From Candidatus Omnitrophota bacterium (GTDB lineage: Bacteria > Omnitrophota > Gorgyraeia > 1-14-0-20-64-10): a stretch of DNA of 64,000 nucleotides. The notes under the pieces were generated by a model, which saw only the letters and a program-made list of their open reading frames with translations, did not search any database and was not told the DNA's origin. The position numbers were made by a program, and so were the translations under genes. Numbering within the stretch: position 1 is the stretch's first letter; the number at the start of each line of letters is the position of its first letter. The stretch spans positions 7,910 through 71,909 of the forward strand of contig JACOVG010000011.1 of NCBI GenBank assembly GCA_016177405.1, read 5' to 3'. Shown here piece by piece: positions 3,876 through 16,494 of this stretch.

Positions 3876-5180
3876 TTACGATTTTCCCTTGAGGACCTTG
3901 AGCCCCTTCAAAAGATCCACCGCCCTCAAAACGAGGGAGTCCTCTTCGGGTTTCGCGCCGGAGCGGCTCTCCGGAGGGGCCTTCTCCTCCACCACCACAT
4001 CCGGCTCCAGGCCCTTGCCGTGGATGATGACGCCCGAGGGGGTGTAATACTTGGCGGTGGTCAGCCGGATCGCCGAGCCGTCCTTCAGGGGAATCACCGT
4101 CTGCACCGAGCCCTTGCCAAAGGTCCGGGTCCCCATCAGGATCGCCCGATGGTGATCCTTCAGGGCGCCGGCCACAATCTCCGAGGCGGAGGCGGAGCCG
4201 CCGTTGACCAGGATCACCATGGGAAAGGCGATGAGCGGGCTCTCGGAGCGGGAGATGAACTCCAGGTTCTGGCCCTTCACGCGCCCCTTGGTGGAGACGA
4301 TCGGCTTGCCCTTCTCCAGGAAGAGCTCGGCCACCTCCACCGCCACGTCCAGAAGCCCCCCGGGGTTGTTGCGCAGATCCAGAATCAACCCCTCGAATCC
4401 GCTCACGCGCAGCTCCTGCAGGGCCCTGCGCAGATCGGCCGGCGTGTTGTCCTGAAACTCGGTGATCCGGACGTAGGCGATCCCCGGCGCGGCCCAGCGG
4501 GCCTGGCGGACCGAGTGGATCTGAATGATCGAGCGGGTCAGGGTGACGTCGAAGAGGCGGTTCTCCGATTCCCGGAGGATCGTGAGGGTGACCCGGGTTC
4601 CGGGCCGGCCCCGGAGGCGCTTCACCGCCTCGTGCAGAGAGACATCCCGGATCGCCTGGCCCTCGATCTTGGTGACCTTGTCGTTGGGCTTCAGGCCCGC
4701 CTTGGCGGCGGGCGTGTCGTCGATGGGGGCGACCACCGTCAGGTTGCCGTCCTTGGAAACCGAGATCTCCAGGCCCACCCCGCCGAACTCCCCCTTGGTA
4801 TCCACCTGCATCTCGGTGAAGGCGTCGGGATCCAAAAACTGGCTGTGGGGATCGAGCGAGCCCACCAGCCCCCGCAGGGCGCCGTAGATCAACTCCTTGG
4901 GGGCCACCGGGTCCACGTATTCGTTCTGGATGATGGTGATCGCCTCGGCCAGGATCTCCACCTGGTCGTAGATCGCCTCCTGCGCGGCCTTGAGGGCCTG
5001 CGAGGCCCGGGGAGCAAAGAGGAAGGAAGACAAAAACAGAAGGAAGAGGGGGACGCTCCAAAAAGGGACACTCTTATTCGCACGTGCAGCCCTCAGGAAC
5101 GCTCCTGTACGAAGGTGTGTCCCAAAATGGAGCGTCCCCTTTTCCTTTCCGCGCGGACCACGCGAGCGAAGCAATCTCAT
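3876..5180 (-). CDS. ctpA: carboxyl-terminal processing protease (S41 family)
   Basis: PDZ domain followed by S41 catalytic region (GLILDLRNNPGG, GSASASEIVAGAL, FGKGSVQ). ATGA overlap with the gatB stop. Long basic N-region before the hydrophobic segment leaves the start slightly uncertain. Confidence 0.85.
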   Translation of the reverse strand: MRLLRSRGPRGKEKGTLHFGTHLRTGAFLRAARANKSVPFWSVPLFLLFLSSFLFAPRASQALKAAQEAIYDQVEILAEAITIIQNEYVDPVAPKELIYGALRGLVGSLDPHSQFLDPDAFTEMQVDTKGEFGGVGLEISVSKDGNLTVVAPIDDTPAAKAGLKPNDKVTKIEGQAIRDVSLHEAVKRLRGRPGTRVTLTILRESENRLFDVTLTRSIIQIHSVRQARWAAPGIAYVRITEFQDNTPADLRRALQELRVSGFEGLILDLRNNPGGLLDVAVEVAELFLEKGKPIVSTKGRVKGQNLEFISRSESPLIAFPMVILVNGGSASASEIVAGALKDHHRAILMGTRTFGKGSVQTVIPLKDGSAIRLTTAKYYTPSGVIIHGKGLEPDVVVEEKAPPESRSGAKPEEDSLVLRAVDLLKGLKVLKGKS

Positions 5181-6631: not shown

Positions 6632-8067
6632 CGGATTTTCGGCTCCCGCTTGTGCCAGCCGGACGCCTGCTCGTACGCGTGAGCCGCCTGAAAGAGCTCG
6701 GCCTCCGCGAAGGGCTTGGCGATGAGCTGCATCCCGATGGGAAGCCCCGCGGGGGTGAACCCGCACGGCAGCGACAGGGCCGGCACGCCGGCCAAGTTCA
6801 CCGAGATCGTGTAAATATCGGAAAGGTACATGGTGAGGGGGTCCGAGAGCTTCTCCCCCAGCCGGAAGGCAGGCGTGGGGGAGGTGGGGGTCATCAGAAG
6901 ATCCACCGCCTCGAAGGCCTTGTCAAAATCCCGCCGGATCAAGGTCCTCACCTTCAGGGCGTGAGCGTAATAGGCCTCGTAGTAGCCGGAGGAGAGGACA
7001 AAGGTTCCCAGGATGATCCGCCGCTTCGCCTCCGGGCCAAAACCCTGCCCACGCGTCTTGCCGTACATCGCGAGCAAGGAATCCCCTTCCCCGGACCGGT
7101 AGCCGTACTGCACCCCGTCGAAGCGGGCGAGGTTGGAGCTCGCCTCGGCCGTGGCCACAATGTAGTAAGTCGGGATGGCGTACTCGGTGTGAGGAAGCGA
7201 TACCTCTTGGATCTTGAGCCCCAGCTTCCTGAATTGCTCAAGGGCCGCCTCCAAGGCTTTTTTCACTTCCGGGTCCAGGCCGTCAATCAGATATTCCTTC
7301 GGAACCCCAACCCGAAGCCCCTTAACCGGCTTCTTAAGCTCCTCCAGGCAGTTGGGAACCTTCGCCTCCACCGAGGTGGAATCACGCTGGTCAAAGCCGG
7401 CGATGCCGGAAAACAAAAGGGCGCAGTCCTCCACCGTCTTGGCGATCGGCCCGATCTGATCCAGTGACGAGGCGAAGGCGATCAGCCCATACCGGGAGAC
7501 CCGGCCGTACGTCGGCTTTAAGCCCACCACCCCGCAGAAGGAGGCCGGCTGGCGGATCGATCCGCCGGTGTCCGAGCCCAAGGCAAGCGGCGTCATGCCG
7601 GCGGCCACCGCCGCGGCCGAGCCGCCGCTGGAGCCGCCAGGGACCCTGGCGGTATCCCAGGGGTTCAGGGTGGGTCCGTACGAGGAGTATTCGCAGGAAG
7701 AGCCGAAGGCAAACTCGTCCATGTTGGCCATCCCCAGAAGGATGGCGCCGGCCGCCTTAAGCCTTTCAATCACGGTGGCGTTGTAGGGCGGCCTGAACCT
7801 CGCCAGGATCTTGGAGGCGCAGGTGGTGGGCACCCCTTCGACACAAAGGTTGTCCTTGACCAGGACCGGGACCCCCCAGAGCGGGCCCTTGGACTTTCCG
7901 TCCGCCGTGAGCGCCCCGGCCTGCTTCCGGACAAACTCCGGGTCAAACCAGACCAGCGCCTTGAGCTTGGGCTGGAGCTCCTCGATCTTTTTGATAAAGG
8001 TCTCGGCAATCTCCGGGGGAGCGGCCTTGCCTGTTTGGTAGATAGCTTGAATTTCGCGGGCTGTCAT
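6628..8067 (-). CDS. gatA: Glu-tRNA(Gln) amidotransferase subunit A (amidase signature)
   Basis: Amidase signature GGSSGGSAAAVAAG and GSDTGGSIRQPASFCG. Start placed at MTAREIQAIY (8067). Confidence 0.9.
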   Translation of the reverse strand: MTAREIQAIYQTGKAAPPEIAETFIKKIEELQPKLKALVWFDPEFVRKQAGALTADGKSKGPLWGVPVLVKDNLCVEGVPTTCASKILARFRPPYNATVIERLKAAGAILLGMANMDEFAFGSSCEYSSYGPTLNPWDTARVPGGSSGGSAAAVAAGMTPLALGSDTGGSIRQPASFCGVVGLKPTYGRVSRYGLIAFASSLDQIGPIAKTVEDCALLFSGIAGFDQRDSTSVEAKVPNCLEELKKPVKGLRVGVPKEYLIDGLDPEVKKALEAALEQFRKLGLKIQEVSLPHTEYAIPTYYIVATAEASSNLARFDGVQYGYRSGEGDSLLAMYGKTRGQGFGPEAKRRIILGTFVLSSGYYEAYYAHALKVRTLIRRDFDKAFEAVDLLMTPTSPTPAFRLGEKLSDPLTMYLSDIYTISVNLAGVPALSLPCGFTPAGLPIGMQLIAKPFAEAELFQAAHAYEQASGWHKREPKIR

Positions 8068-8101
8068 TGGCAGGAGTAAAAACTCTCGGCCGTCATTGCG
8101 A

Positions 8102-8123
8102 CCCGCCAACGTTCTTTGGCGGG
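8102..8123. repeat. palindromic element CCGCCAA-N6-TTGGCGG (copy 1), gatA-gatC intergenic
   Basis: cccgccaa cgttct ttggcggg: perfect 8-bp inverted repeat. A second near-identical copy lies at 8499-8522. Confidence 0.5.
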
Positions 8124-8144
8124 GAAGCAATCCCGTTCTTCAGA

Positions 8145-8438
8145 TTAACTCGCCTCAATGATCTTCGGCACCTTGAAGAAGTTCCCCTCTCGGGAAGGCG
8201 CGTTGGCCAGGGCCTGCTCGGGCTTTAACGAGGGCTGAACCTCATCCTCCCGGAAGACGTTGGCCAGGGCCTCGACGTGACTGGTGGGGGGAACCCCTTG
8301 GGTCTTGGCTTCTTTCAGCTTCTCGACATAGGCCAGGATCTCGTCGAGCTCCCGGGTGAACTTCTTCAGCTCCTCGGGGGTGAGCTCGATCCTCGCCAGG
8401 AGGGCCAGATACTCAACGTCCTTAACGGTGATCGCCAT
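8145..8438 (-). CDS. gatC: Glu-tRNA(Gln) amidotransferase subunit C
   Basis: 97 aa. MAITVKDVEYLALLARIELTPEE motif typical of GatC. Operon position upstream of gatA. Confidence 0.85.
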   Translation of the reverse strand: MAITVKDVEYLALLARIELTPEELKKFTRELDEILAYVEKLKEAKTQGVPPTSHVEALANVFREDEVQPSLKPEQALANAPSREGNFFKVPKIIEAS

Positions 8439-8444
8439 GGGGCC

Positions 8445-8473
8445 ATCTTAGCAGGCCCAAATCGCCAAATCAA
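8445..8473 (-). promoter_or_regulatory. putative sigma70-type promoter for gatC (TTGATT-N17-TAAGAT), possibly leaderless
   Basis: On the minus strand the -35 TTGATT lies at 8473-8468 and the -10 TAAGAT at 8450-8445, with a 17-nt spacer. The gatC ATG begins 7 nt after the -10 and no Shine-Dalgarno sequence is visible. Sequence-only prediction. Confidence 0.3.
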
Positions 8474-8498
8474 CGTGCGGAAACCACCGTCATCTCGA

Positions 8499-8522
8499 GT
8501 CCGCCAACAATCTTTGGCGGAC
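8499..8522. repeat. palindromic element CCGCCAA-N6-TTGGCGG (copy 2), upstream of gatC promoter
   Basis: gtccgccaa caatct ttggcggac: 9-bp inverted repeat sharing the same core as the element at 8102-8123. Confidence 0.5.
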
Positions 8523-8574
8523 GAGAGATCTCGCTTGGGATGGTTCTGTGGAAGGAATTACGCTTGGGTGGTGA

Positions 8575-8599
8575 GGGTGCCAGGCTTTAGACTGGCACC
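8575..8599 (-). other. stem-loop GGTGCCAG-N8-CTGGCACC about 7 nt after the giant-gene stop
   Basis: 8-bp GC-rich inverted repeat. No U-tract follows it on the minus strand, so it is not a canonical intrinsic terminator. The stem sequence recurs at 37950-37976. Confidence 0.4.
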
Positions 8600-8606
8600 G
8601 TCTGAA

Positions 8607-11600
8607 TTAGGCGAAGCGAGCTCTGAGGATCTCCCAGGCGATCTCTTCGGTGATGAAGCGCATCTCGGTGAAGTAATCGGTCACATCAAGCAGGATGTGT
8701 TTTCCGGAAGAGACCGACCGATTGCTCTCTCTCCAAACCGCAAGAACTTGGGTAGCAAGGAGAGGCAACAACTTGAAGGGGATCGGGCTATCGACACGAT
8801 CCTCCGGTCGCACCGCGTAAACGGTGTCTGAATCCGCAGGCTCCGAAGCTGCGGGTGGCCCCGCCATCAACTTAACAATCCGATAGTCGGATTCTCTGTA
8901 ATGGCTTTCCTGATCGTCTGAAAGCAGATCGACCGCCACCACGGGAAACTTCCCAAGCCCAGTAAGGTTCTGGCCAATCGATTTGAGATGCTCGCCGAGA
9001 TGGGTAATCCCGCTTTTCATCAAAGAGGAATCAACGAGAAGGGCGATTCGGGTTCTATCTTTTGTAATCTCCTCTACCGAGTTACCTGCTCGATCCACCA
9101 CGGCCTTTGCTGCGTTACGCTCCTGCCCTGTCAGCACCTCCTCATAATAGCCCCCTAACAATCCCCCTTCTATGATGGGCGGCTCCTCCTTCCCCTCCTC
9201 CAGCCCGCCAGCGGGGCCCTCCGCCGCAACAGCGGCCTCCTCTGGCAGAAGCAGGAATCCACCCACCAGATCCTCGCGGCTGTATTGCTTCTCGAACGCG
9301 CCATCCGCCGGGGTGATCTGCTCTGCGAACTTCAAAAAGGCACTGCCATTGTCTCCCAGCGCGGCCACTTGAAAATGCTGCCCGGTTTCTCGGCCAATCA
9401 GAACGTCCCCCACCTGAAGGGCGGTAGCGGCATCAATGAACCGCGCCCCTTCCGGGGCGCTCACCGCCTTCCCCTCCTCCAGCCCAGCGAAGGAGTCTTC
9501 GCCCCCAATATGATCCCCGGGTCCAAAGCTTTCCTCCGAAACCACCTCTTCTTCATCGCCCCCAGCAGGCCCCGCGTGAACTGGAATGGATTGTTCGGCA
9601 GAGAGCTTCCGTGTTCTGTGAGGGCGGCTAAGCCTCTGGATTAAGTCCGTTGTTTCGTCCCATTTTTCCCACGCGGCATCTCCCAGTGGATTAAACCAAT
9701 CAAGCCGCCCGGGACGAGGGGGCAATTTAAACATTCCTAGGGTGGCTTCAGCGTCCCGGAGAAAACCGGAACGAGCTTGGAATTGGGCGATCTCGCAGTA
9801 AGCCCTGACTTTTCCACCGTCAGTTGCTTCGCTTCCGTTCACAATTCCCCTTGCCTTTTCGAACGTCTGCTCGGCCAATGTTTTCTTTTTTAACCCAGCA
9901 GAAGCAAACCCCCCGCCGACTTCCCCAAGTATCTGCGCGACACAGAAAACGGTATCATCGGTAAGGCGATCCATGTCCCAAGGCAGCGTGTATCCCTTCC
10001 GGAGGAAACCCACTTTCTTTAATTCTCCAATCAAGAGCTCAAGGAACGATCTGTCATTGATAGGGTATTGGTAGTTGCGCCCCAGCTTGCCAAGCGCTTG
10101 ACCAAAGGTACCGATGGCTTCTGCCTCCAAACCCCTCTCTGCCTGCCTTCCAGCCACATAGGCCATGGCTTCAATTTTATCGCCAACGGCGTCCCGCCCG
10201 ATGAAACCTTCAGCTTCTCGAAGGGCGTCATTGAACCTTCCTTTGTCCGCGTACTTTATGACGTCAGCCATTCGAAGCTTATTCGCCTCACGCTGCTTTT
10301 CCACTATCCCCCAGTCCTCCTCCAGGCCGGAGTACCGCCTAAAAGCTTGCGCTCCGTCGTGCCACTCACGAACCGCATCTTCAGCCCGTGCGGCGTCCCA
10401 ACCTCTTTCAAGCATGAGATCACGTACTCGGGACGAAAGTCCCGCTTGGGTTGCGGGGTCGAGGCCAACGTAGGCTGCAATCCCAGTCCTGTCATCGTTG
10501 GAGCGAACTCGCCTTTCGGACTCCGTTTGATGAGGCCCGCTTTCTTCGAGAAGCTCTCTCTTCCGCGCCTGCTCTTCTTCCCTCATCGCTTCGCGAACAC
10601 GGTTCGCAAAAGTGGGAGCTTTTTCTGTCCCCTCGGGCGACTTGGATAATTTAAGCTGGCTGGCGGTGGCGAGCAAAACGGAACCTGTATCTTCTACCGA
10701 GACGCTCTCTTTTAAGCCAAGGGGCTTGAGGTTGACAAACCAACGATCGTTCGTGCCAAGAAAGAAATCGCCCGTCTCTTTCTCCCAGCCCTCAAAGGTT
10801 CCTATGACGACCCGGCCCTCTTGAATCGCCAGAATGAGGTCACCTTGCGCAAGTTCCTCCGTGTCAAGACTAGAAACATACACGGCACCAAGCCTTCCTA
10901 AAACATACCGGATAAAGTCTTGTTCAAGCTCCCCGACACCCAAGATTCTCCGGGCCCCGGCTTGATCGCCAATGGCCACCGTCTTCTTAAGGTCAGCAAG
11001 GACCTGGGCCGGAAGCTTCGGCTGCCTCTCCTCCAGCCCGGCGGCGGGGGGGAAAAATTGGGCGCCATTCAAGGATGATCTCTCAATGGGGTGCTCCTGG
11101 CCTTCTCGATCTACGAGCACAACGGGCTGAGCTAAGCGTCCAGTCAGCCCAAGATGGTGAGTGAGCTTAACCCGAAAGCTCCCCTTGAGAGCAGGTGTTG
11201 GATCAACGATAACGGTGTCTGCATACAGAATGGTATTAGACCTGACCCGCTGCTGCCCCTCCTCCTGGAGCGAACCGGAAGATTGGGGCTGAAGGGCATA
11301 GGCATCGCCAGGGAGAAGGACCAACTCTGGAATTGCGCCGGCCGGGAAGAACTGGCTCCAGATGTACAAACCCTTCTCCGAAGCCACAGGAAGATGCTGT
11401 TTAAGAAATGGGGCCAGCGGGCTGCCTATCTGTCCTTCCCCCAAGGGAAGCGCCCTGCCCTCTACCCAAACCTCCAGGCGATAGTCTTGATCGTGCTTGA
11501 CCTTCATCTTCTCCAGTGCCGAGATGGCGCCATAACTGGTTGGAATGATCCCGCGCCGGCGAAGAGCCAGAGAGAGCGCGGCCATGTACTGGTTGTACTG

Positions 11601-14600
11601 CTGCGCGGTAAGATGACCCTCGTCGCGCAAACGAACCAGGTCGTGATGCCATCGTTCCGATTGATCTGGAAGAAGCAGCCCCCGGGCGAGGAGTGTCCTG
11701 GCCTCTACCGACTCTAGGAAACCTGGAAAGCGGGCCTGAATTTTTTCTTTCGGTGGAACGCGTATCTTTCCCAAATAGCCGGCGATGGCGGCAAGGGCTT
11801 TGTATTTGTTGACAACTCCAAGGACGGAGCGGGCAGCGGCAAGGGCTTCGGTGAAGGTGGGCCCTGGATCCAAGCCGGCCGATGCCTGGTGTTCAGCGAT
11901 GGCGACAAGGGCTTTGTATCTGTCGGAAGCTCCATTGATAGAGCGGGCAACAACAAGGGCTTCAGTGAATTGGCCAACCGATGCCTGGTGTTCAGCGATG
12001 GCGACAAGGGCTTCGTAATCGAAGGTACGACTACTAATGGAGCGGGCACCGTCAAGGGCTTCGATGAAGGTGGGCCCTGAATCTAGGCCGGCCGATGCCA
12101 GGTGTTTGGCGATGGCGGCAAGGGCTCTGGATTTGTCAGGTTTGCCATAGTCGGAGTAGCTGGAGACGATGGAGCGGGCGGTGGCAAGGGCTTCGGTGAA
12201 TTGGCCGGCCGATGCCTGGTGTTCAGCGATGGCGGCAAGAGCACTGGATCTGTCAGACTTGCTATAGGCGTCGCTGGGGGCGATGGAGCGGGCGGTAGCA
12301 AGAGCTTTTGTGAATTGGCCGGCCAATGCCTGGTGTTCAGCGATGGCGGCAAGGGCTTTGTGTTTGTCGTTATCTCCACGGATGGAGCGGGTAGCGGCAA
12401 GGGCTTCGGCGAAGGTGGGCCCTGGATCTAGGCCGGCCGATGCCTGGTGTTCGGCGATGACGGCAAGAGCTTCGTATTCGTTAAACTCTCTATTGACAGA
12501 GTAGCTGGGGTTGGTGGAGCGAATGGTGGCAAGGGCTTCAATGAATTGGCCGGCCGATGCCTGGTGTTTGGCGATGGCGGCAAGGGCTTTGGATCTGTCC
12601 CAATTGCCGATGGAGCGGGCAGTGGCAAGGGCTTCGGTGAATTGGCCGACCGATGCCTGGTGTTCAGCGATGGCGGCAAGGGCTTCGGATTTGATGGCAT
12701 CTTCATCTTCTTCAGTGATGGAGCGAGCGACGGCAAGGGCTTCGGTGAAGGTAGGCCCTGGATCTAGGCCGGCCGATGCCTGGTGTTCGGCGATGACGGC
12801 AAGGGCTCTGGATCTGCCAGACTTGCTATAGGCAGAATCGGTGTTGTAGATGGGATCGATGAAGCGGGCAGCGTCAAGGGCTTCGATGAAGGTGGGCCCT
12901 GGATCTAGGCCGGCCGATGCCTGGTGTTCGGCGATGACGGCAAGGGCTCTGGGTCTGTCGGCAGTTTCAGGGATGGAGCGGGCGGTGGCAAGGGCTTCGG
13001 TGAATTGGCCGGCCGATGCCTGGTGTTCGGCGATGGCGGCAAGGGCTTCGTATTCGTCGCCAACTTCACTGATGGAGCGGGCAACGGCAAGAGCTTCGGT
13101 GAAGGTGGGCCCTGGATCCAAGCCAGCCGATGCCTGGTGTTTGGCGATGGTGGCAAGGGTTTCGTATTCGCCAGACTCGCCAGAGGCAAGGTAGTTGGGC
13201 CTGATGGAACGGGCGGTGGCAAGGATTATTGTCCAACGCATATGTGTTATTAATTCCACCTCCTCCAGCCCGGCGGCAGGGCCCTCCGCCGCAACAGCGG
13301 CCTCCCTTGACAGAAGCAGGAATCCACCCACCAGCTCCTCGCGGCTGTACCGCTTCTCGAACGCGCTATCCTCCGGGGTGATCTGCTCTGCGAACTTCAA
13401 AAAGGCACTGCCGTTGTCTCCGAGCGCAATCACTTGAAAATACTGCCGGGTTTCTTGGCCAATCAGAATGTCCCCCACCTGAAGGTCGGTATGGGCATCC
13501 ATGAACCGCGCCCTCTCCGGGGCGCTCACCGCCTTCCCCTCCTCCAGCCCGGCGGCTGGTTTAATAAGGGTAGAAATGTTGTATTTGAAATTTTCTTCAC
13601 CCTCCCCCCTCCAGTCGAGAATAAACTCAACCTGTTCAATCTTAGTTAGTGATTGGAGGGCTGGCGGAATTGTGCGATCCTGCCACGAGCCAGGTCCCCC
13701 AGGGGTAGACTCGGGGTGCTCAAGCAAGGCATGAAAGACACCGATTCGTGCTTTCGGCGCTTCCTTCGCCATCTTTAGAATCCAATTGACAATAGGGCGA
13801 TTCGGACCATCAGCATTAGCATACACAAGAACCTCATTGGCTTTCCCAGACTTCAACAATCTCTCTGCAACATCCCATTCGGCCCGAACTGGAATGAGAC
13901 TTTGCTCCCTGTTGCCAGATTCCTTAACCCATTGCTCATGTGATTTCCAAGCCCATTGGGTGTCTCCCACTAACAGGATAATCCGCGCCTCCTCCAGCCC
14001 GGCGGCCGGGCCTTTGGGCTTGGATTTGGAAAGAGCCCTCCTCAAATCGCCTCCAACCTTCCTCCGCTGTTTCAGCGGCTGTAATCCAAGAAGCCGAACC
14101 ATCCCCTTCCCTAGACTGGCCATCCCTCCACCTAGGCTGGCTGCTCCTTTTAGAGTGGCACGTGCGGGGGAAGTTGTGATCTTTGCCGGCAGTTTAGCAG
14201 CGTGTCGGTCCTTCTCTTCCTCCAGCCCGGTGGTGGGGCGAGCGTTCTCCACGTCAGTCTTATCAAGGACAGCATAACCTTTCTCGAGCACCCCATCCGC
14301 CGTCGCATCTTCCATCGTCATGACCAAGAAGGTAAGGATCCTGTCCCCCGAGAAGCCTGATGGCCAGACAACGATCTTTTCCAACTTAAGAAGAAAGCCA
14401 GGTGATTCCCATTTCCCTTGAGTCTTTTTCTTTTGAAGAATCGCCATGATCCGCGGAAGATTTTGTAGGACATAAGTCAAATCTGAAGAATCCTCCCCGG
14501 CCTGTCTAATGACGGAGCTCCGAACAGCAACGAAAGTTTCCTTGGAAGCGCTACCCCTGTTCAATTTCGGATCCCACCCCAAGAATTCTCTAAGATTCTT

Positions 14601-15536
14601 GGGAACAGTTAGATTCAAAGTAAGTTGGGCCGTCCCAAGCTGCCCTTTCCCTGGCATTTTGGGAGTGGGCTCTACACCTCTTTTACGCAAGGTAGGCTGA
14701 AATCCAGCTGGCCCTATGAAGACCAAATCCACCTCAGCATCTGGTGAGCCAGCCGGCTTCTGAACCGCCTCACCCGACTCGATCGAAATCAGGTTTCCTA
14801 TGAGGGAGGCGACCTCTCCCTCAGAAATCTGCCCCTCCTCCAGCCCGGTGGCGGGGCGGGCTTCAGCAAGGGCGTTAAGACGGGCGCCAAGTCCCTCTAG
14901 GGAAGTCGAATAATCCAACAGCCGGTCCTGACGTCGCAAAAAACCTAACTCGCCAATTAGATCAGCCCTATCATCTGGAAACGCGATGATGGGCGGCAAT
15001 CGCTTTAGATCTTTATCCTCAAGTAAAGTTTTGAGAAACTGCATGGCGCGGCCGTTCATGCTGCCTGGAAACAGGATCACCCCGCCAAAAGAGGTTCCTT
15101 TAAACGCTTCAAGCGGATCCCCTTTGGGCGTCCGCAAAACAACCCCACGCCTGCCGACCAGCCGGTGACCTCCACCAACCAACCATATGTCAACGGCGTC
15201 CTTGAAGCTTACAACGTCAAACTTCTCCGGTTCATCCACCACCACCAGCCATTTCAGACCCTCCTCCAGCCCGGCGGCGAGGTCTTCGAGAGGTTCAGGG
15301 CGGGCGGGAGTTACCGTGGACGCGGTTTGGGGTTGAGCAGGAACAACGAGTTGAGCCAGGCGGCGGATGGCTTGGCCGGGACTCTGGAAGACTTCGTTGA
15401 GCTCTTCGAGGCCCGTGGCCTCGGCGGCTGCCTCCTGGCGGAAGGCCAACGCGGGGCTGGGCGCGGCGAGGGTAAGCGCCAAAAGAAGGGCTGTGAAACG
15501 GCTTGCGGCCTTTATCGGGGAGTTGCGCATTCTCAT
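8607..15536 (-). CDS. giant secreted modular protein (about 2,309 aa) of unknown function, punctuated by (P/A)(A/T)(A/T)GLEE motifs, with tandem helical repeats and an internally duplicated module
   Basis: Uninterrupted 6.9-kb ORF, consistent with the codon usage of neighbouring genes (by eye). Sec-type signal peptide MRMRNSPIKAASRFTALLLALTLAAPSPALA from the ATG at 15536; the ORF track starts at a TTG at 15548. Eleven GLEE motifs at aa 46, 93, 235, 441, 517, 667, 760, 1504, 1741, 2022 and 2115, using ORF-track numbering. No catalytic motif recognised by eye. Confidence 0.7.
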   Translation of the reverse strand: MRMRNSPIKAASRFTALLLALTLAAPSPALAFRQEAAAEATGLEELNEVFQSPGQAIRRLAQLVVPAQPQTASTVTPARPEPLEDLAAGLEEGLKWLVVVDEPEKFDVVSFKDAVDIWLVGGGHRLVGRRGVVLRTPKGDPLEAFKGTSFGGVILFPGSMNGRAMQFLKTLLEDKDLKRLPPIIAFPDDRADLIGELGFLRRQDRLLDYSTSLEGLGARLNALAEARPATGLEEGQISEGEVASLIGNLISIESGEAVQKPAGSPDAEVDLVFIGPAGFQPTLRKRGVEPTPKMPGKGQLGTAQLTLNLTVPKNLREFLGWDPKLNRGSASKETFVAVRSSVIRQAGEDSSDLTYVLQNLPRIMAILQKKKTQGKWESPGFLLKLEKIVVWPSGFSGDRILTFLVMTMEDATADGVLEKGYAVLDKTDVENARPTTGLEEEKDRHAAKLPAKITTSPARATLKGAASLGGGMASLGKGMVRLLGLQPLKQRRKVGGDLRRALSKSKPKGPAAGLEEARIILLVGDTQWAWKSHEQWVKESGNREQSLIPVRAEWDVAERLLKSGKANEVLVYANADGPNRPIVNWILKMAKEAPKARIGVFHALLEHPESTPGGPGSWQDRTIPPALQSLTKIEQVEFILDWRGEGEENFKYNISTLIKPAAGLEEGKAVSAPERARFMDAHTDLQVGDILIGQETRQYFQVIALGDNGSAFLKFAEQITPEDSAFEKRYSREELVGGFLLLSREAAVAAEGPAAGLEEVELITHMRWTIILATARSIRPNYLASGESGEYETLATIAKHQASAGLDPGPTFTEALAVARSISEVGDEYEALAAIAEHQASAGQFTEALATARSIPETADRPRALAVIAEHQASAGLDPGPTFIEALDAARFIDPIYNTDSAYSKSGRSRALAVIAEHQASAGLDPGPTFTEALAVARSITEEDEDAIKSEALAAIAEHQASVGQFTEALATARSIGNWDRSKALAAIAKHQASAGQFIEALATIRSTNPSYSVNREFNEYEALAVIAEHQASAGLDPGPTFAEALAATRSIRGDNDKHKALAAIAEHQALAGQFTKALATARSIAPSDAYSKSDRSSALAAIAEHQASAGQFTEALATARSIVSSYSDYGKPDKSRALAAIAKHLASAGLDSGPTFIEALDGARSISSRTFDYEALVAIAEHQASVGQFTEALVVARSINGASDRYKALVAIAEHQASAGLDPGPTFTEALAAARSVLGVVNKYKALAAIAGYLGKIRVPPKEKIQARFPGFLESVEARTLLARGLLLPDQSERWHHDLVRLRDEGHLTAQQYNQYMAALSLALRRRGIIPTSYGAISALEKMKVKHDQDYRLEVWVEGRALPLGEGQIGSPLAPFLKQHLPVASEKGLYIWSQFFPAGAIPELVLLPGDAYALQPQSSGSLQEEGQQRVRSNTILYADTVIVDPTPALKGSFRVKLTHHLGLTGRLAQPVVLVDREGQEHPIERSSLNGAQFFPPAAGLEERQPKLPAQVLADLKKTVAIGDQAGARRILGVGELEQDFIRYVLGRLGAVYVSSLDTEELAQGDLILAIQEGRVVIGTFEGWEKETGDFFLGTNDRWFVNLKPLGLKESVSVEDTGSVLLATASQLKLSKSPEGTEKAPTFANRVREAMREEEQARKRELLEESGPHQTESERRVRSNDDRTGIAAYVGLDPATQAGLSSRVRDLMLERGWDAARAEDAVREWHDGAQAFRRYSGLEEDWGIVEKQREANKLRMADVIKYADKGRFNDALREAEGFIGRDAVGDKIEAMAYVAGRQAERGLEAEAIGTFGQALGKLGRNYQYPINDRSFLELLIGELKKVGFLRKGYTLPWDMDRLTDDTVFCVAQILGEVGGGFASAGLKKKTLAEQTFEKARGIVNGSEATDGGKVRAYCEIAQFQARSGFLRDAEATLGMFKLPPRPGRLDWFNPLGDAAWEKWDETTDLIQRLSRPHRTRKLSAEQSIPVHAGPAGGDEEEVVSEESFGPGDHIGGEDSFAGLEEGKAVSAPEGARFIDAATALQVGDVLIGRETGQHFQVAALGDNGSAFLKFAEQITPADGAFEKQYSREDLVGGFLLLPEEAAVAAEGPAGGLEEGKEEPPIIEGGLLGGYYEEVLTGQERNAAKAVVDRAGNSVEEITKDRTRIALLVDSSLMKSGITHLGEHLKSIGQNLTGLGKFPVVAVDLLSDDQESHYRESDYRIVKLMAGPPAASEPADSDTVYAVRPEDRVDSPIPFKLLPLLATQVLAVWRESNRSVSSGKHILLDVTDYFTEMRFITEEIAWEILRARFA
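9195..9485 (-). repeat. direct repeat copy B (encodes module D copy 2, aa 2022-2118 of the giant protein)
   Basis: About 290 nt, roughly 90% identical at the DNA level to 13260-13550. Protein GKAVSAPEGARFIDAATALQVGDVLIGRETGQHFQVAALGDNGSAFLKFAEQITPADGAFEKQYSREDLVGGFLLLPEEAAVAAEGPAGGLEE. The out-of-frame ORFs 9172-9372(+) and 13195-13437(+) mirror each other and confirm the duplication. Confidence 0.8.
11760..13170 (-). repeat. tandem array of about 12-13 helical repeats (32-47 aa units; consensus ALAAIAEHQASAG[LDPGPT]FTEALATARSI...) within the giant gene
   Basis: Repeated peptide units read directly in the translation. The array corresponds to the cluster of mirror-image out-of-frame ORFs on both strands between 11714 and 13253. 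Two alternating unit types, with or without the LDPGPT insert. Confidence 0.8.
13260..13550 (-). repeat. direct repeat copy A (encodes module D copy 1, aa 667-763 of the giant protein)
   Basis: GKAVSAPERARFMDAHTDLQVGDILIGQETRQYFQVIALGDNGSAFLKFAEQITPEDSAFEKRYSREELVGGFLLLSREAAVAAEGPAAGLEE. Partner of 9195-9485, about 3.8 kb away in the same gene. Confidence 0.8.
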
Positions 15537-15553
15537 TGGGCTATACAAGAGGA

Positions 15554-15582
15554 AGTATGGCCTGCCCTTTTTGAAAAGTCAA
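15554..15582 (-). promoter_or_regulatory. putative sigma70-type promoter for the giant gene (TTGACT-N17-CATACT)
   Basis: On the minus strand the -35 TTGACT lies at 15582-15577 and the -10 CATACT at 15559-15554, with a 17-nt spacer. The predicted +1 is about 11 nt upstream of the ATG at 15536 and no SD is visible. Low-confidence sequence-only call. Confidence 0.25.
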
Positions 15583-15624
15583 GGCTGGAACGAAATTTCT
15601 TCTAAGCTAACTTTTTATTAACAC

Positions 15625-16494
15625 CTAACCCCGCAAGACCCTCTGGAGACGCCCCATCTCCGCCAGGTCGAAGGTTTCGGGGCGGCGGACCGGGTCTATG
15701 CCGGCGGCCCGGAGGCGATCGGCCAGCTCCTGCTTGCCGATGAGATTTCTCGCCCTCGCGGGCTCGAAATGACCGAAAGCCAGAGCATTCAGGAGGGTCT
15801 TGCGGCGGTGGGTGAAGATGAGGCGCACCAGTTTCAGGACGGCCTCCTCTTCCTCGGTCGGAACAACCGGCTTCTCCAGCGGATCAAGCTGGAGGACCGC
15901 CGAGGTCACCTTCGGCTGGGGATAGAAGCAGTTGGGCGGGATCAAGAAGGCGATGGAGGGCTGGAAGGCCACGCCAACCAGCAGGGTGAGGCTGGAATAT
16001 TCCTTGGTGCTTGGCTTGGCCACGATCCGCTGGGCCACCTCTTTCTGGATGGTGAGAACCGCCCGCTTCACCCAGCGCCTCTCCTTCAGCAGATACTCCA
16101 GGATGGGGCTCGTCATCGAGAAGGGGATGTTGCCCACGACCAGCAGCGACTTCTCGATACCGGCGGCGTACGATTCCAGGCCCAGATCAAGGATGTCGGA
16201 CTGGACGATTTTCTTAAGATTCGGACTCTCCTTGAACCGGTCGGTCAGCACCTGAACAAACTTGGCATCCCGTTCGACGGCAAAGAGCTCCGCGCCGGTG
16301 GCCAGCAAGGCCTCGGTGAGCGCCCCCAGCCCCGCTCCGATCTCCAGAATCTTATCCCCGGCGCCAGCCCCGATCGCCAGCGCGATCCGCGCGAGGATCC
16401 TCGGGTCCACCAGGAAGTTCTGCCCCATCCGCCGGGGCGAGATCGCCAGGTGGTACTGCCGGCACAGCTCCTTGATCGCCCTCGAGTTCAACAT
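15625..16494 (-). CDS. rsmA: 16S rRNA (adenine1518/1519-N6)-dimethyltransferase
   Basis: MGQNFLVDPRI, EIGAGLGALT and VGNIPF motifs of KsgA/RsmA. Confidence 0.9.
   Translation of the reverse strand: MLNSRAIKELCRQYHLAISPRRMGQNFLVDPRILARIALAIGAGAGDKILEIGAGLGALTEALLATGAELFAVERDAKFVQVLTDRFKESPNLKKIVQSDILDLGLESYAAGIEKSLLVVGNIPFSMTSPILEYLLKERRWVKRAVLTIQKEVAQRIVAKPSTKEYSSLTLLVGVAFQPSIAFLIPPNCFYPQPKVTSAVLQLDPLEKPVVPTEEEEAVLKLVRLIFTHRRKTLLNALAFGHFEPARARNLIGKQELADRLRAAGIDPVRRPETFDLAEMGRLQRVLRG

Follow-up and report, generated by a model that had tools for sequence, protein, structure and literature searches.

A PAAGLEE-coding junction sequence in an apparently undescribed family of mosaic, predicted exported proteins of Omnitrophota

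The mosaic gene and its junction sites

The 64,000 nucleotide stretch of a Candidatus Omnitrophota contig analyzed here (the window) carries a long open reading frame (ORF) in which a short sequence coding for PAAGLEE, or a close variant of it, recurs at the boundaries between protein modules. Judged from its sequence and that of its relatives, this repeat is best described as the junction element of a family of mosaic exported proteins that appears to be new; the literature searched, including the main papers on Omnitrophota giant genes, describes neither the motif nor the architecture. The gene lies on the minus strand among housekeeping genes, between ksgA/rsmA and gatC-gatA-gatB-ctpA. The segment between its end and gatA is occupied by gatC (8148-8438, minus strand), which places the mosaic gene directly upstream of the gatCAB operon.

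The product is 100% identical to HYS41_02595, a hypothetical protein of a Candidatus Omnitrophica metagenome-assembled genome (MAG) at NCBI. It had no match in Pfam, NCBIfam, PDB, PADLOC or PHROG (Pfam and NCBIfam at E <= 1 gave noise only), and an Rfam scan of the window gave nothing. Homology searches with the whole ORF protein or with its C-terminal half returned the protein itself only or nothing, and a full HMMER search with amino acids 1-780 as query returned module-sized relatives in other proteins. The tetrapeptide GLEE occurs 11 times, against 0.16 occurrences expected from composition, and between them these sites delimit a leader, about ten modules that range from 47 to 744 amino acids, and a C-terminal module. 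The ORF and the sites, whose number and positions are as given in the initial annotation of this DNA, are listed below.

8607..15536, minus strand: mosaic ORF, about 2,309 amino acids counted from the first ATG; a version started at TTG extends to 15548
15402..15422, minus strand: EATGLEE, leader-proximal junction; GGC CTC GAA GAG (15402-15413), codons that differ from those of the internal junctions
15261..15281, minus strand: LAAGLEE, internal junction; exact copy of the 18-mer GCCGCCGGGCTGGAGGAG
14835..14855, minus strand: PATGLEE, internal junction, start of module M3; CCC GCC ACC GGG CTG GAG GAG
14217..14237, minus strand: PTTGLEE, internal junction, start of M4; CCC ACC ACC GGG CTG GAG GAA, one synonymous change from the 12-mer GGGCTGGAGGAG
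13989..14009, minus strand: PAAGLEE, internal junction, start of M5; CCG followed by the 18-mer; a block 87% identical to the related locus L077 starts here
13539..13559, minus strand: PAAGLEE, internal junction, end of M5 and start of M6; CCA followed by the 18-mer; the block of homology with L077 stops here
13260..13280, minus strand: PAAGLEE, internal junction, end of M6 and start of M7; CCT followed by the 18-mer
11028..11048, minus strand: PAAGLEE, internal junction; CCC followed by the 18-mer, identical to the 21-nucleotide master sequence of the family
10317..10337, minus strand: RYSGLEE site; GGC CTG GAG GAG (10317-10328), a divergent copy or a coincidental GLEE
9474..9494, minus strand: SFAGLEE, internal junction, start of M10; TCC TTC GCT followed by the 12-mer
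9195..9215, minus strand: PAGGLEE, internal junction, end of M10 and start of the C-terminal module; CCC GCT GGC followed by the 12-mer

Eight of the 11 sites are encoded by exactly GGGCTGGAGGAG (GGG CTG GAG GAG), which reads CTCCTCCAGCCC on the plus strand and ends there at positions 9206, 9485, 11039, 13271, 13550, 14000, 14846 and 15272. The initial annotation had counted nine exact copies; the additional one, at 14217-14228, ends in GAA, so that nine sites share 11 nucleotides. It had rightly set apart the sites near 15413 and 10328 as using different codons. Its statement that GCC or ACC precedes the Gly codon applies to seven of the nine sites, the other two having GCT and GGC. Within the 64 kb, CTCCTCCAGCCC is confined to the mosaic gene and to one strand, with 0.04 copies expected. 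Longer identities are also present, with six copies of the 17-mer CTCCTCCAGCCCGGYGG (0.00 expected) and five of the 18-mer. At four PAAGLEE sites the edges of the shared tract are sharp: the Pro codon is CCG, CCA, CCT or CCC, the following 18 nucleotides are invariant, and the flanks are unrelated.

One account of this identity would be codon bias or chance, the motif being merely written in preferred codons, and GGG, GCC and GAG are indeed common codons in the genome. GGG, which the initial annotation had called rarer, is the commonest Gly codon both in the mosaic gene (34.5%) and in the flanking genes (35%). CTG, which it had put down to codon bias, is instead the unexpected codon, supplying only 18% of Leu in the mosaic gene versus 38% for CTT. 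When the gene was shuffled among synonymous codons (n = 20,000), the number of identical 12-mers at the 11 sites was usually one or two and never exceeded five, so that no shuffle reached the observed eight. Four of the sites belong to one duplicated module of 93 amino acids, which leaves about nine independent sites; at these the excess of identity has a binomial p of 3e-9 with the codon usage of the gene and 3e-5 with that of the flanking genes. As a further control, chance occurrences of PAAGLEE in ORFs of unrelated metagenomes carry the 12-mer at 4 of 112 sites among the matches listed. Gene codon usage, the shuffles, this control and the family sites found by means other than DNA identity (below) exclude codon bias or chance, to which we attach a negligible probability. 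Homogenization at the DNA level beyond codon bias, which the initial annotation had suspected, is shown by the gene's codon usage, the shuffles and the relatives' sites.

A family of proteins with GLEE junctions

The exact 21-mer CCNGCCGCCGGGCTGGAGGAG was scanned in 185,579 genomes, one per species, and 76 loci were found. About 25 of these belong to some 10 MAGs labelled Omnitrophota or Planctomycetia and consist of long ORFs with 3-8 GLEE each, while the other loci are single chance matches in Streptomyces and others. The family ORFs reach more than 2,300 amino acids, and many end at the edge of the locus. A codon-degenerate scan of metagenomes for PAAGLEE listed mostly chance single matches, and at least three further family loci. 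A scan of viral contigs gave nine single chance matches and no multi-GLEE ORF. P0006 lies on a 785-bp contig that offers no gene neighborhood, and P0001 is without a recorded contig. The motif is thus common to a whole protein family, a point that goes beyond the initial annotation, as does the evidence given below that the peptide itself is under selection.

Eleven family leaders could be aligned and share the pattern R..A.FLAL.L.LP.PALALR, with the first GLEE 10-45 residues downstream; a profile of these leaders matched four short fragments only. A signal peptide cut by signal peptidase I has a basic n-region, a hydrophobic h-region of about 12 residues, and A-x-A before the cleavage site. 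By inspection the window protein fits this pattern (MRMRNSPIKAASR / FTALLLALTLAA / PSPALA, cut before FR), its leader ending ...FTALLLALTLAAPSPALA and FR following the putative cleavage point.

15444..15536, minus strand: predicted Sec-type leader MRMRNSPIKAASRFTALLLALTLAAPSPALA/FR, read from the sequence and from the alignment of 11 family leaders

In a logo of 122 junctions, Pro is found at position -3 in 39%, Ala at -2 in 51% and Ala at -1 in 70% (otherwise Ser, Thr, Gly or Val), followed by G-L-E-E. Pro is modestly commoner in the residues just upstream of the junction, and nothing is conserved downstream of GLEE. The modules between the junctions are mostly unrelated to one another, and some are whole enzymes. 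In L035 a junction separates a GH77 4-alpha-glucanotransferase (MalQ) from a GT5+GT1 glycogen synthase. In L030 junctions lie between an alpha/beta hydrolase, a PP2C and a hydrolase, with a methyltransferase and others also present. In L021 a PrmA-type methyltransferase domain is bounded by a junction on each side, and one inter-junction stretch contains both a PfkB kinase and a further methyltransferase; L065 has a metallophosphoesterase module. L030 and L065 also bear a Sec-type leader. GH77/glycogen synthase, PfkB, S-adenosylmethionine-dependent methyltransferases, PP2C and metallophosphoesterase are typical of the cytoplasm and would be odd cargo for export unless delivered into another cell.

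Conservation of the junction as DNA and as peptide

The codon counts given here for the family exclude every site matched by a DNA search pattern. Among 108 internal family junctions, 37 carry the exact 12-mer, whereas codon usage in those ORFs would predict 4.3%, and 65% lie within one substitution of it, versus 26% expected. The core TGGAGGA is found in 92 of the 108, versus 39% of the Leu-Glu dipeptides elsewhere in the same ORFs, and it is kept at 81% of the DNA-unselected sites, even where Leu is replaced by Met, Val or Ala. Upstream of GLEE, GCC makes up 74-78% of the Ala codons at the junction (background 42%) and ACC 82-89% of the Thr codons; CCC makes up 65% of the Pro codons at -3 (background 32%), while Pro at -4 follows background usage. 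From this preference for GCC, ACC and CCC and its end at -4, the master sequence is about 21 nucleotides long, CCCGCCGCCGGGCTGGAGGAG (CCC GCC GCC GGG CTG GAG GAG).

The refuting condition named in the initial annotation, varied codons for the same peptide motif in orthologs, has a mixed outcome. Close relatives share the codons, and more distant members encode G[LM]EE differently: GGG TTG in L078 and L190, GGC CTG in L104, and ATG in GMEE. The variants at the Leu codon (ATG, GTG, GCG, ACG and CAG) are one or two steps from the master, some of them non-synonymous, and such a cloud fits a young, repeatedly copied sequence. The L104 locus (OBEQ011077771.1, a 14.5-kb metagenome contig) has two leader-bearing GLEE genes, with ORFs of 544 and 1,479 amino acids, whose junctions are mostly GGC CTG or GGA/GGC TTG rather than GGG CTG and look like a lineage-specific variant of the box. 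The leader-proximal junctions of the family differ from the internal ones. They keep GLEE, have the core in only three of nine cases versus 92 of 108 (Fisher p = 0.001), and use GGC for Gly in eight of nine. The sequence GGC CTC GAA GAG is found at this junction in the window, L077, L037 and L055.

Two layers appear to be present in these sequences, namely a need at the protein level for [small]-G-L-E-E at every junction, and a sameness at the DNA level of the internal junctions. We infer that the junction peptide is under protein-level selection, because the leader-proximal junctions keep GLEE with background codons and G[LM]EE persists in distant members in spite of their different codons.

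That TGGAGGA is the best-conserved part of the box, at the DNA-unselected sites and with Leu changed to Met, Val or Ala, might point to a translational signal, with GGAGGAG acting as an internal Shine-Dalgarno sequence that pauses the ribosome or starts a module at the boundaries. ATG, GTG or TTG follows 3-9 nucleotides downstream in 3.5-5.7% of cases versus 5.5-6.8% in controls, and no enrichment of start codons after GGAGG was seen at any offset from 0 to 29 nucleotides (141 sites). Stops in the other frames are unremarkable, the window's other genes show no avoidance of GGAGG (191 versus 178 +/- 10), and no conserved RNA structure was found round the junctions. CCC GCC GCC, which would be superfluous for such a signal, is also conserved, and most leader-proximal junctions lack the core. 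A Shine-Dalgarno-like role of GGAGGAG thus has little support, and we regard it as very unlikely.

Exchange of modules between genomes and within the gene

The modules that bear most directly on exchange are listed below, together with a run of repeats in M7.

13551..14000, minus strand: module M5 (amino acids 517-666), flavodoxin/CheY-like beta-alpha pattern
13272..13550, minus strand: module M6 (amino acids 667-759), one copy of the in-gene duplicate of 93 amino acids
9207..9485, minus strand: module M10 (amino acids 2022-2114), second copy of that duplicate
8610..9206, minus strand: C-terminal module (amino acids 2115-2313), with homologs in the final module of P0003 and of P0005
11874..13224, minus strand: tandem repeats of about 33-38 amino acids, HEAT/TPR-like, ALAAIAEHQASAGQFTEALATARSI..., inside module M7

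L077 has the gene order pdxA-ksgA-P0003-gatC-gatA-gatB-ctpA, in which P0003, a GLEE protein of 794 amino acids, takes the same position as the window gene. The flanking genes of the two loci are 85-88% identical. In P0003 the leader is followed by a short segment, then by M5, a module that has no counterpart in the window, M3 and the C-terminal module. In the window it is leader and M1 to M11, with M3 ahead of M5 and many further modules, and the two alleles differ threefold in length. This syntenic allele, in which GLEE sites mark the losses, gains and changes of order of modules, is a recombinant allele of the kind that the initial annotation had envisaged in related strains. The synonymous divergence (dS) and the ratio of non-synonymous to synonymous divergence (dN/dS) vary widely along the gene.

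M5, window versus L077: dS 0.08, dN/dS 1.9
M3, window versus L077: dS 0.73, dN/dS 0.62
Leader, window versus L077: dS 1.1, dN/dS 0.48
C-terminal module, window versus L077: dS about 3 (saturated), dN/dS 0.24
M6 versus M10, duplicate within the window gene: dS 0.084, dN/dS 1.2
Flanking genes, window versus L077: dS 0.38-0.51, dN/dS about 0.18

Since the dS of M5 is 0.08 versus about 0.4 in the flanking genes, M5 appears to have been exchanged later than the divergence of the two genomes. The dN/dS values of M5 and of M6/M10 are signs of diversifying selection on these modules.

The edges of the homologous blocks coincide with the junctions. M5 in the window and in L077 is about 87-90% identical in nucleotides from GGGCTGGAGGA to GCCGCCGGGCTGGAGGAGGG, and outside this block there is no similarity. 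M6 and M10 are 91% identical, their homology running from 4 nucleotides before the motif to 5-6 nucleotides after the next one. All six of the blastn high-scoring segment pairs (HSPs) between loci of the family start 1-8 nucleotides ahead of the motif, and those that cover a full module stop 4-6 nucleotides past the next motif. At the protein level, about 33 of 48 internal BLASTP HSP ends lie within 10 amino acids of a motif, versus 8% expected. Modules are shared across proteins and genomes and can take different positions in them; amino acids 93-234 of the window protein, for example, correspond to amino acids 348-493 of P0004. These alignments show homology blocks, in protein and in nucleotides, that begin and end at the junctions, and, as read from sequence comparison, modules that behave as units when they are duplicated, lost, put in a new order or passed from one genome to another. 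The suggestion in the initial annotation that the sites act as homology boxes for module shuffling gains comparative support from these block edges, while a role of the box as substrate is inferred only.

A site-specific cassette system in the style of a shufflon or integron, where the box would be the target of a dedicated recombinase that moves modules in frame, would fit a sharp-edged tract that stays constant although the modules beside it are unrelated, and would fit the recurrence of one module at several positions and in several genes. Only direct copies of the box occur, with no inverted copy. No recombinase gene lies near the window gene or near its relatives in L077, L078 and L079, and no multi-GLEE gene was found on the viral contigs. 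The junctions form no attC-like structure: their folding z-scores resemble those of controls within the gene, and the pairing is inconsistent. A dedicated system of this type is in our opinion highly improbable.

Descent without any role for recombination is the main alternative. It holds that junction DNA was copied along with the modules, and that selection removes recombinants that cut domains. The M6/M10 duplicate did bring its own junctions along, the variants at the Leu position resemble one- or two-step mutants of a young master, and some variants are preferred by lineage (GGG TTG in L078 and L190, GGC CTG in L104). Descent alone fits less well because most neighboring modules are unrelated and yet share the junction: with unrelated modules on either side of most junctions, co-duplication leaves the shared 18-21 nucleotides unexplained. 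The identical master is also present in genomes of different species, and the junction is the sole shared sequence at which the observed exchanges could join. We consider descent alone unlikely.

A possible mechanism

The reading that we think probable is that a PAAGLEE-coding repeat separates the modules of a hypervariable exported protein, and that recombination keeps the junction DNA alike. In the simplest account to fit these results, the protein needs the junction peptide, and modules, as the comparisons show, are swapped as whole units. Exchanges would run through the junction DNA, as the sole sequence common to unrelated modules, and repeated passage through it would hold the internal junctions near one master per exchanging community of genomes, while the leader junction, which would never be exchanged, would drift to ordinary codons. 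Concerted evolution together with lateral exchange of modules would in this way produce the nucleotide identity of the internal junctions, and an identity of about 21 nucleotides, which is roughly the minimum length usually quoted for RecA-dependent exchange, could in turn let unrelated modules join in frame. The box itself may be the substrate of recombination, and not only a marker of tolerated breakpoints.

Several points weigh against this reading. Exchange at any position, with survival only at domain boundaries, would also give the same breakpoints, and recombination is read here from comparison. The sites are not independent, as they include paralogous junctions and related genomes, and the p-values are optimistic to that extent. 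Part of the family sample was found by the exact DNA motif, and the same-gene neighbors of the excluded sites may correlate with them. The core TGGAGGA is more conserved than the third position of the Gly codon, and its conservation could hint at an extra function at the nucleotide level. An AlphaFold2 model of amino acids 500-780, which span two junctions, made from the single sequence, was uninformative (predicted local distance difference test score, pLDDT, 42).

A separate reading is that of a Chi-like hotspot, in which a RecBCD-type enzyme would recognize GCTGGAGG in the box and stimulate recombination beside the junctions. The resemblance that the initial annotation had noted is real at the sequence level: GCTGGAGG, which lies inside GGGCTGGAGGAG, matches the Chi variant G(G/C)TGGAGG of Haemophilus influenzae and figures among the candidate Chi sequences of some Proteobacteria (PMC8022716). 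In the other coding sequences of the window, compared with synonymous shuffles, GNTGGAGG occurs 38 times versus 18.8 +/- 4.0 and GCTGGTGG 13 times versus 4.4 +/- 1.9, both with strong strand skew; GCTGGAGG itself occurs 10 times versus 5.1 +/- 2.0 expected. The excess of GCTGGTGG and GNTGGAGG (about 3-fold and about 2-fold) may reflect either a signal of Chi type or an effect of codon pairs, and the strand skew of the octamers is inseparable from gene orientation in a 64-kb window. Across the 64 kb outside 8607-15548, the E. coli-type Chi GCTGGTGG has 23 copies on the minus strand and a single copy on the plus strand. Against a Chi role, conservation of the box extends over 21 nucleotides and not 8, lineages with GGG TTG carry GTTGGAGG instead, and the 12-mer is restricted to one gene in 64 kb. 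Recognition of the box as a Chi site seems to us quite unlikely.

As to the peptide, it is most likely an inter-module linker or a processing site, as far as sequence and models can tell. This is favored because the motif stands in front of each module, even the one that directly follows the leader; because Pro is modestly enriched just upstream; because a compact alpha/beta domain is preceded by a motif region whose pLDDT is below 50; and because Ala, the usual residue ahead of Gly in the junction, is also the last residue in 15 of 24 complete family proteins. The structural point comes from an AlphaFold2 model of the C-terminal module, an alpha/beta fold with pLDDT 77 in which the first 25 residues, including GLEE, are those below 50; a Foldseek comparison of this model with the PDB gave generic alpha/beta folds only (E >= 0.01) and no PDB match. 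Hints of cleavage at the junctions are indirect: the Ala at -1 in 70% of them, the terminal Ala just mentioned, and the whole enzymes found from one junction to the next. A bolder proposal is that some Omnitrophota-type bacteria have an in-frame exchange system in which the 21-nucleotide box, with its Chi-like octamer, would be an active recombination signal, unrelated enzyme or effector modules would be pasted between genes and genomes behind a Sec leader, and the exported polyproteins would be cleaved at the Ala/Gly of the junctions into separate proteins. We put it forward tentatively and consider it rather unlikely.

Comparison with known systems

Three groups of variable proteins resemble the junction family in behavior. 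The modules of MARTX toxins are released by cleavage in short inter-module linkers. These toxins, for example RtxA1 of Vibrio vulnificus, are very long exported polypeptides with serial, unrelated effector or enzyme modules whose content varies between strains by recombination (PMC6315884, PMC5555677). Like them, the window protein is a long, predicted exported string of unrelated modules, and its module content differs between alleles, as judged from the set and order of modules, the mosaic dS and the breakpoints at junctions. Unlike them, it has a Sec-type leader, its junction is a fixed heptapeptide with a fixed 21-nucleotide coding sequence, and a domain search found no RTX repeats, cysteine protease domain (Peptidase C80) or type-I secretion signal in it.

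In CdiA (VENN) and Rhs (PxxxxDPxGL) proteins a short peptide with conserved DNA marks the point at which variable modules are swapped by recombination, and each protein has one such junction, with a toxin tip beyond it and then an immunity gene. The window family likewise has a conserved peptide and conserved DNA at its swap points, but up to 10 junctions per protein; the window protein is without FHA, Rhs or VENN domains, and no immunity-like gene is its neighbor, gatC, gatA and gatB lying downstream. In antigenic-variation cassettes such as Borrelia vlsE (17-bp repeats) and Neisseria pilE/pilS, short direct repeats flank exchangeable segments, and variants of one segment are drawn from silent copies. 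Short direct repeats that bound exchangeable segments, a hypervariable exported protein and dN/dS of 1.9 and 1.2 recall these systems, whereas the window family strings unrelated modules together and no silent cassette array was seen.

The likeness to Chi lies in GCTGGAGG, an exact published Chi variant (PMC8022716), and the difference in a tract of 21 nucleotides that is in frame and limited to one gene family. Unlike a shufflon, all copies in the window are on one strand and no Rci-type recombinase is adjacent; unlike an integron, there are no attC-like hairpins at the window junctions and no integrase near the window gene or in L077. The junction family is not, as far as its sequences indicate, a member of the MARTX, CdiA/Rhs or antigenic-variation groups, although it resembles each of the three in behavior: a search for the domains, repeats, proteases, immunity genes and recombinases that define them gave none. 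It points to an apparently undescribed, cassette-like construction of variable exported proteins.

The Omnitrophota, which are ultra-small and uncultured, are presumed predators or parasites and are known for very long and poorly conserved ORFs of unknown function (PMC10066038). A fixed peptide with a fixed coding sequence provides a searchable rule for splitting such giant proteins into real units. Mosaic junctions would also explain why homology searches with whole proteins fail while single modules match relatives. They point to a mechanism of rapid diversification, the exchange of modules, between genomes too, at about 21 shared nucleotides. Should the junctions prove to be cleavage sites as well, these would be bacterial polyproteins with mixed enzyme loads, and proteome annotation would change.

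Other features of the locus and of related loci

The mosaic gene has a G+C content of 57% versus 63-66% in its surroundings (window 8001-16000), and the genes of the family are likewise lower in L077 (53% versus 58%) and L078 (54% versus 56%). The tandem repeats of M7 show weak similarity to the HEAT-like repeats of P0002, an NB-ARC STAND protein.

The terminal Ala of the 15 family proteins (-FA, -AA or -QA; background Ala 10%; C-terminus of the window gene at 8610-8612) recalls the residue that precedes Gly in the junction peptide. Four genes downstream, past gatC, gatA and gatB, both the window (3876-5180) and L077 have ctpA, which codes for a C-terminal processing peptidase of the S41 type but belongs to a conserved cluster of housekeeping genes.

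In L077 and L079 the GLEE gene is flanked by small genes that resemble toxin-antitoxin genes (CopG, HicA and UPF0150/HicB-like); the window gene has no such neighbors.

L077 2855-3363 and 6786-7129; L079 1978-3122: toxin-antitoxin-like genes

L077 also has a gene for a 23S rRNA intervening-sequence protein between pdxA and ksgA.

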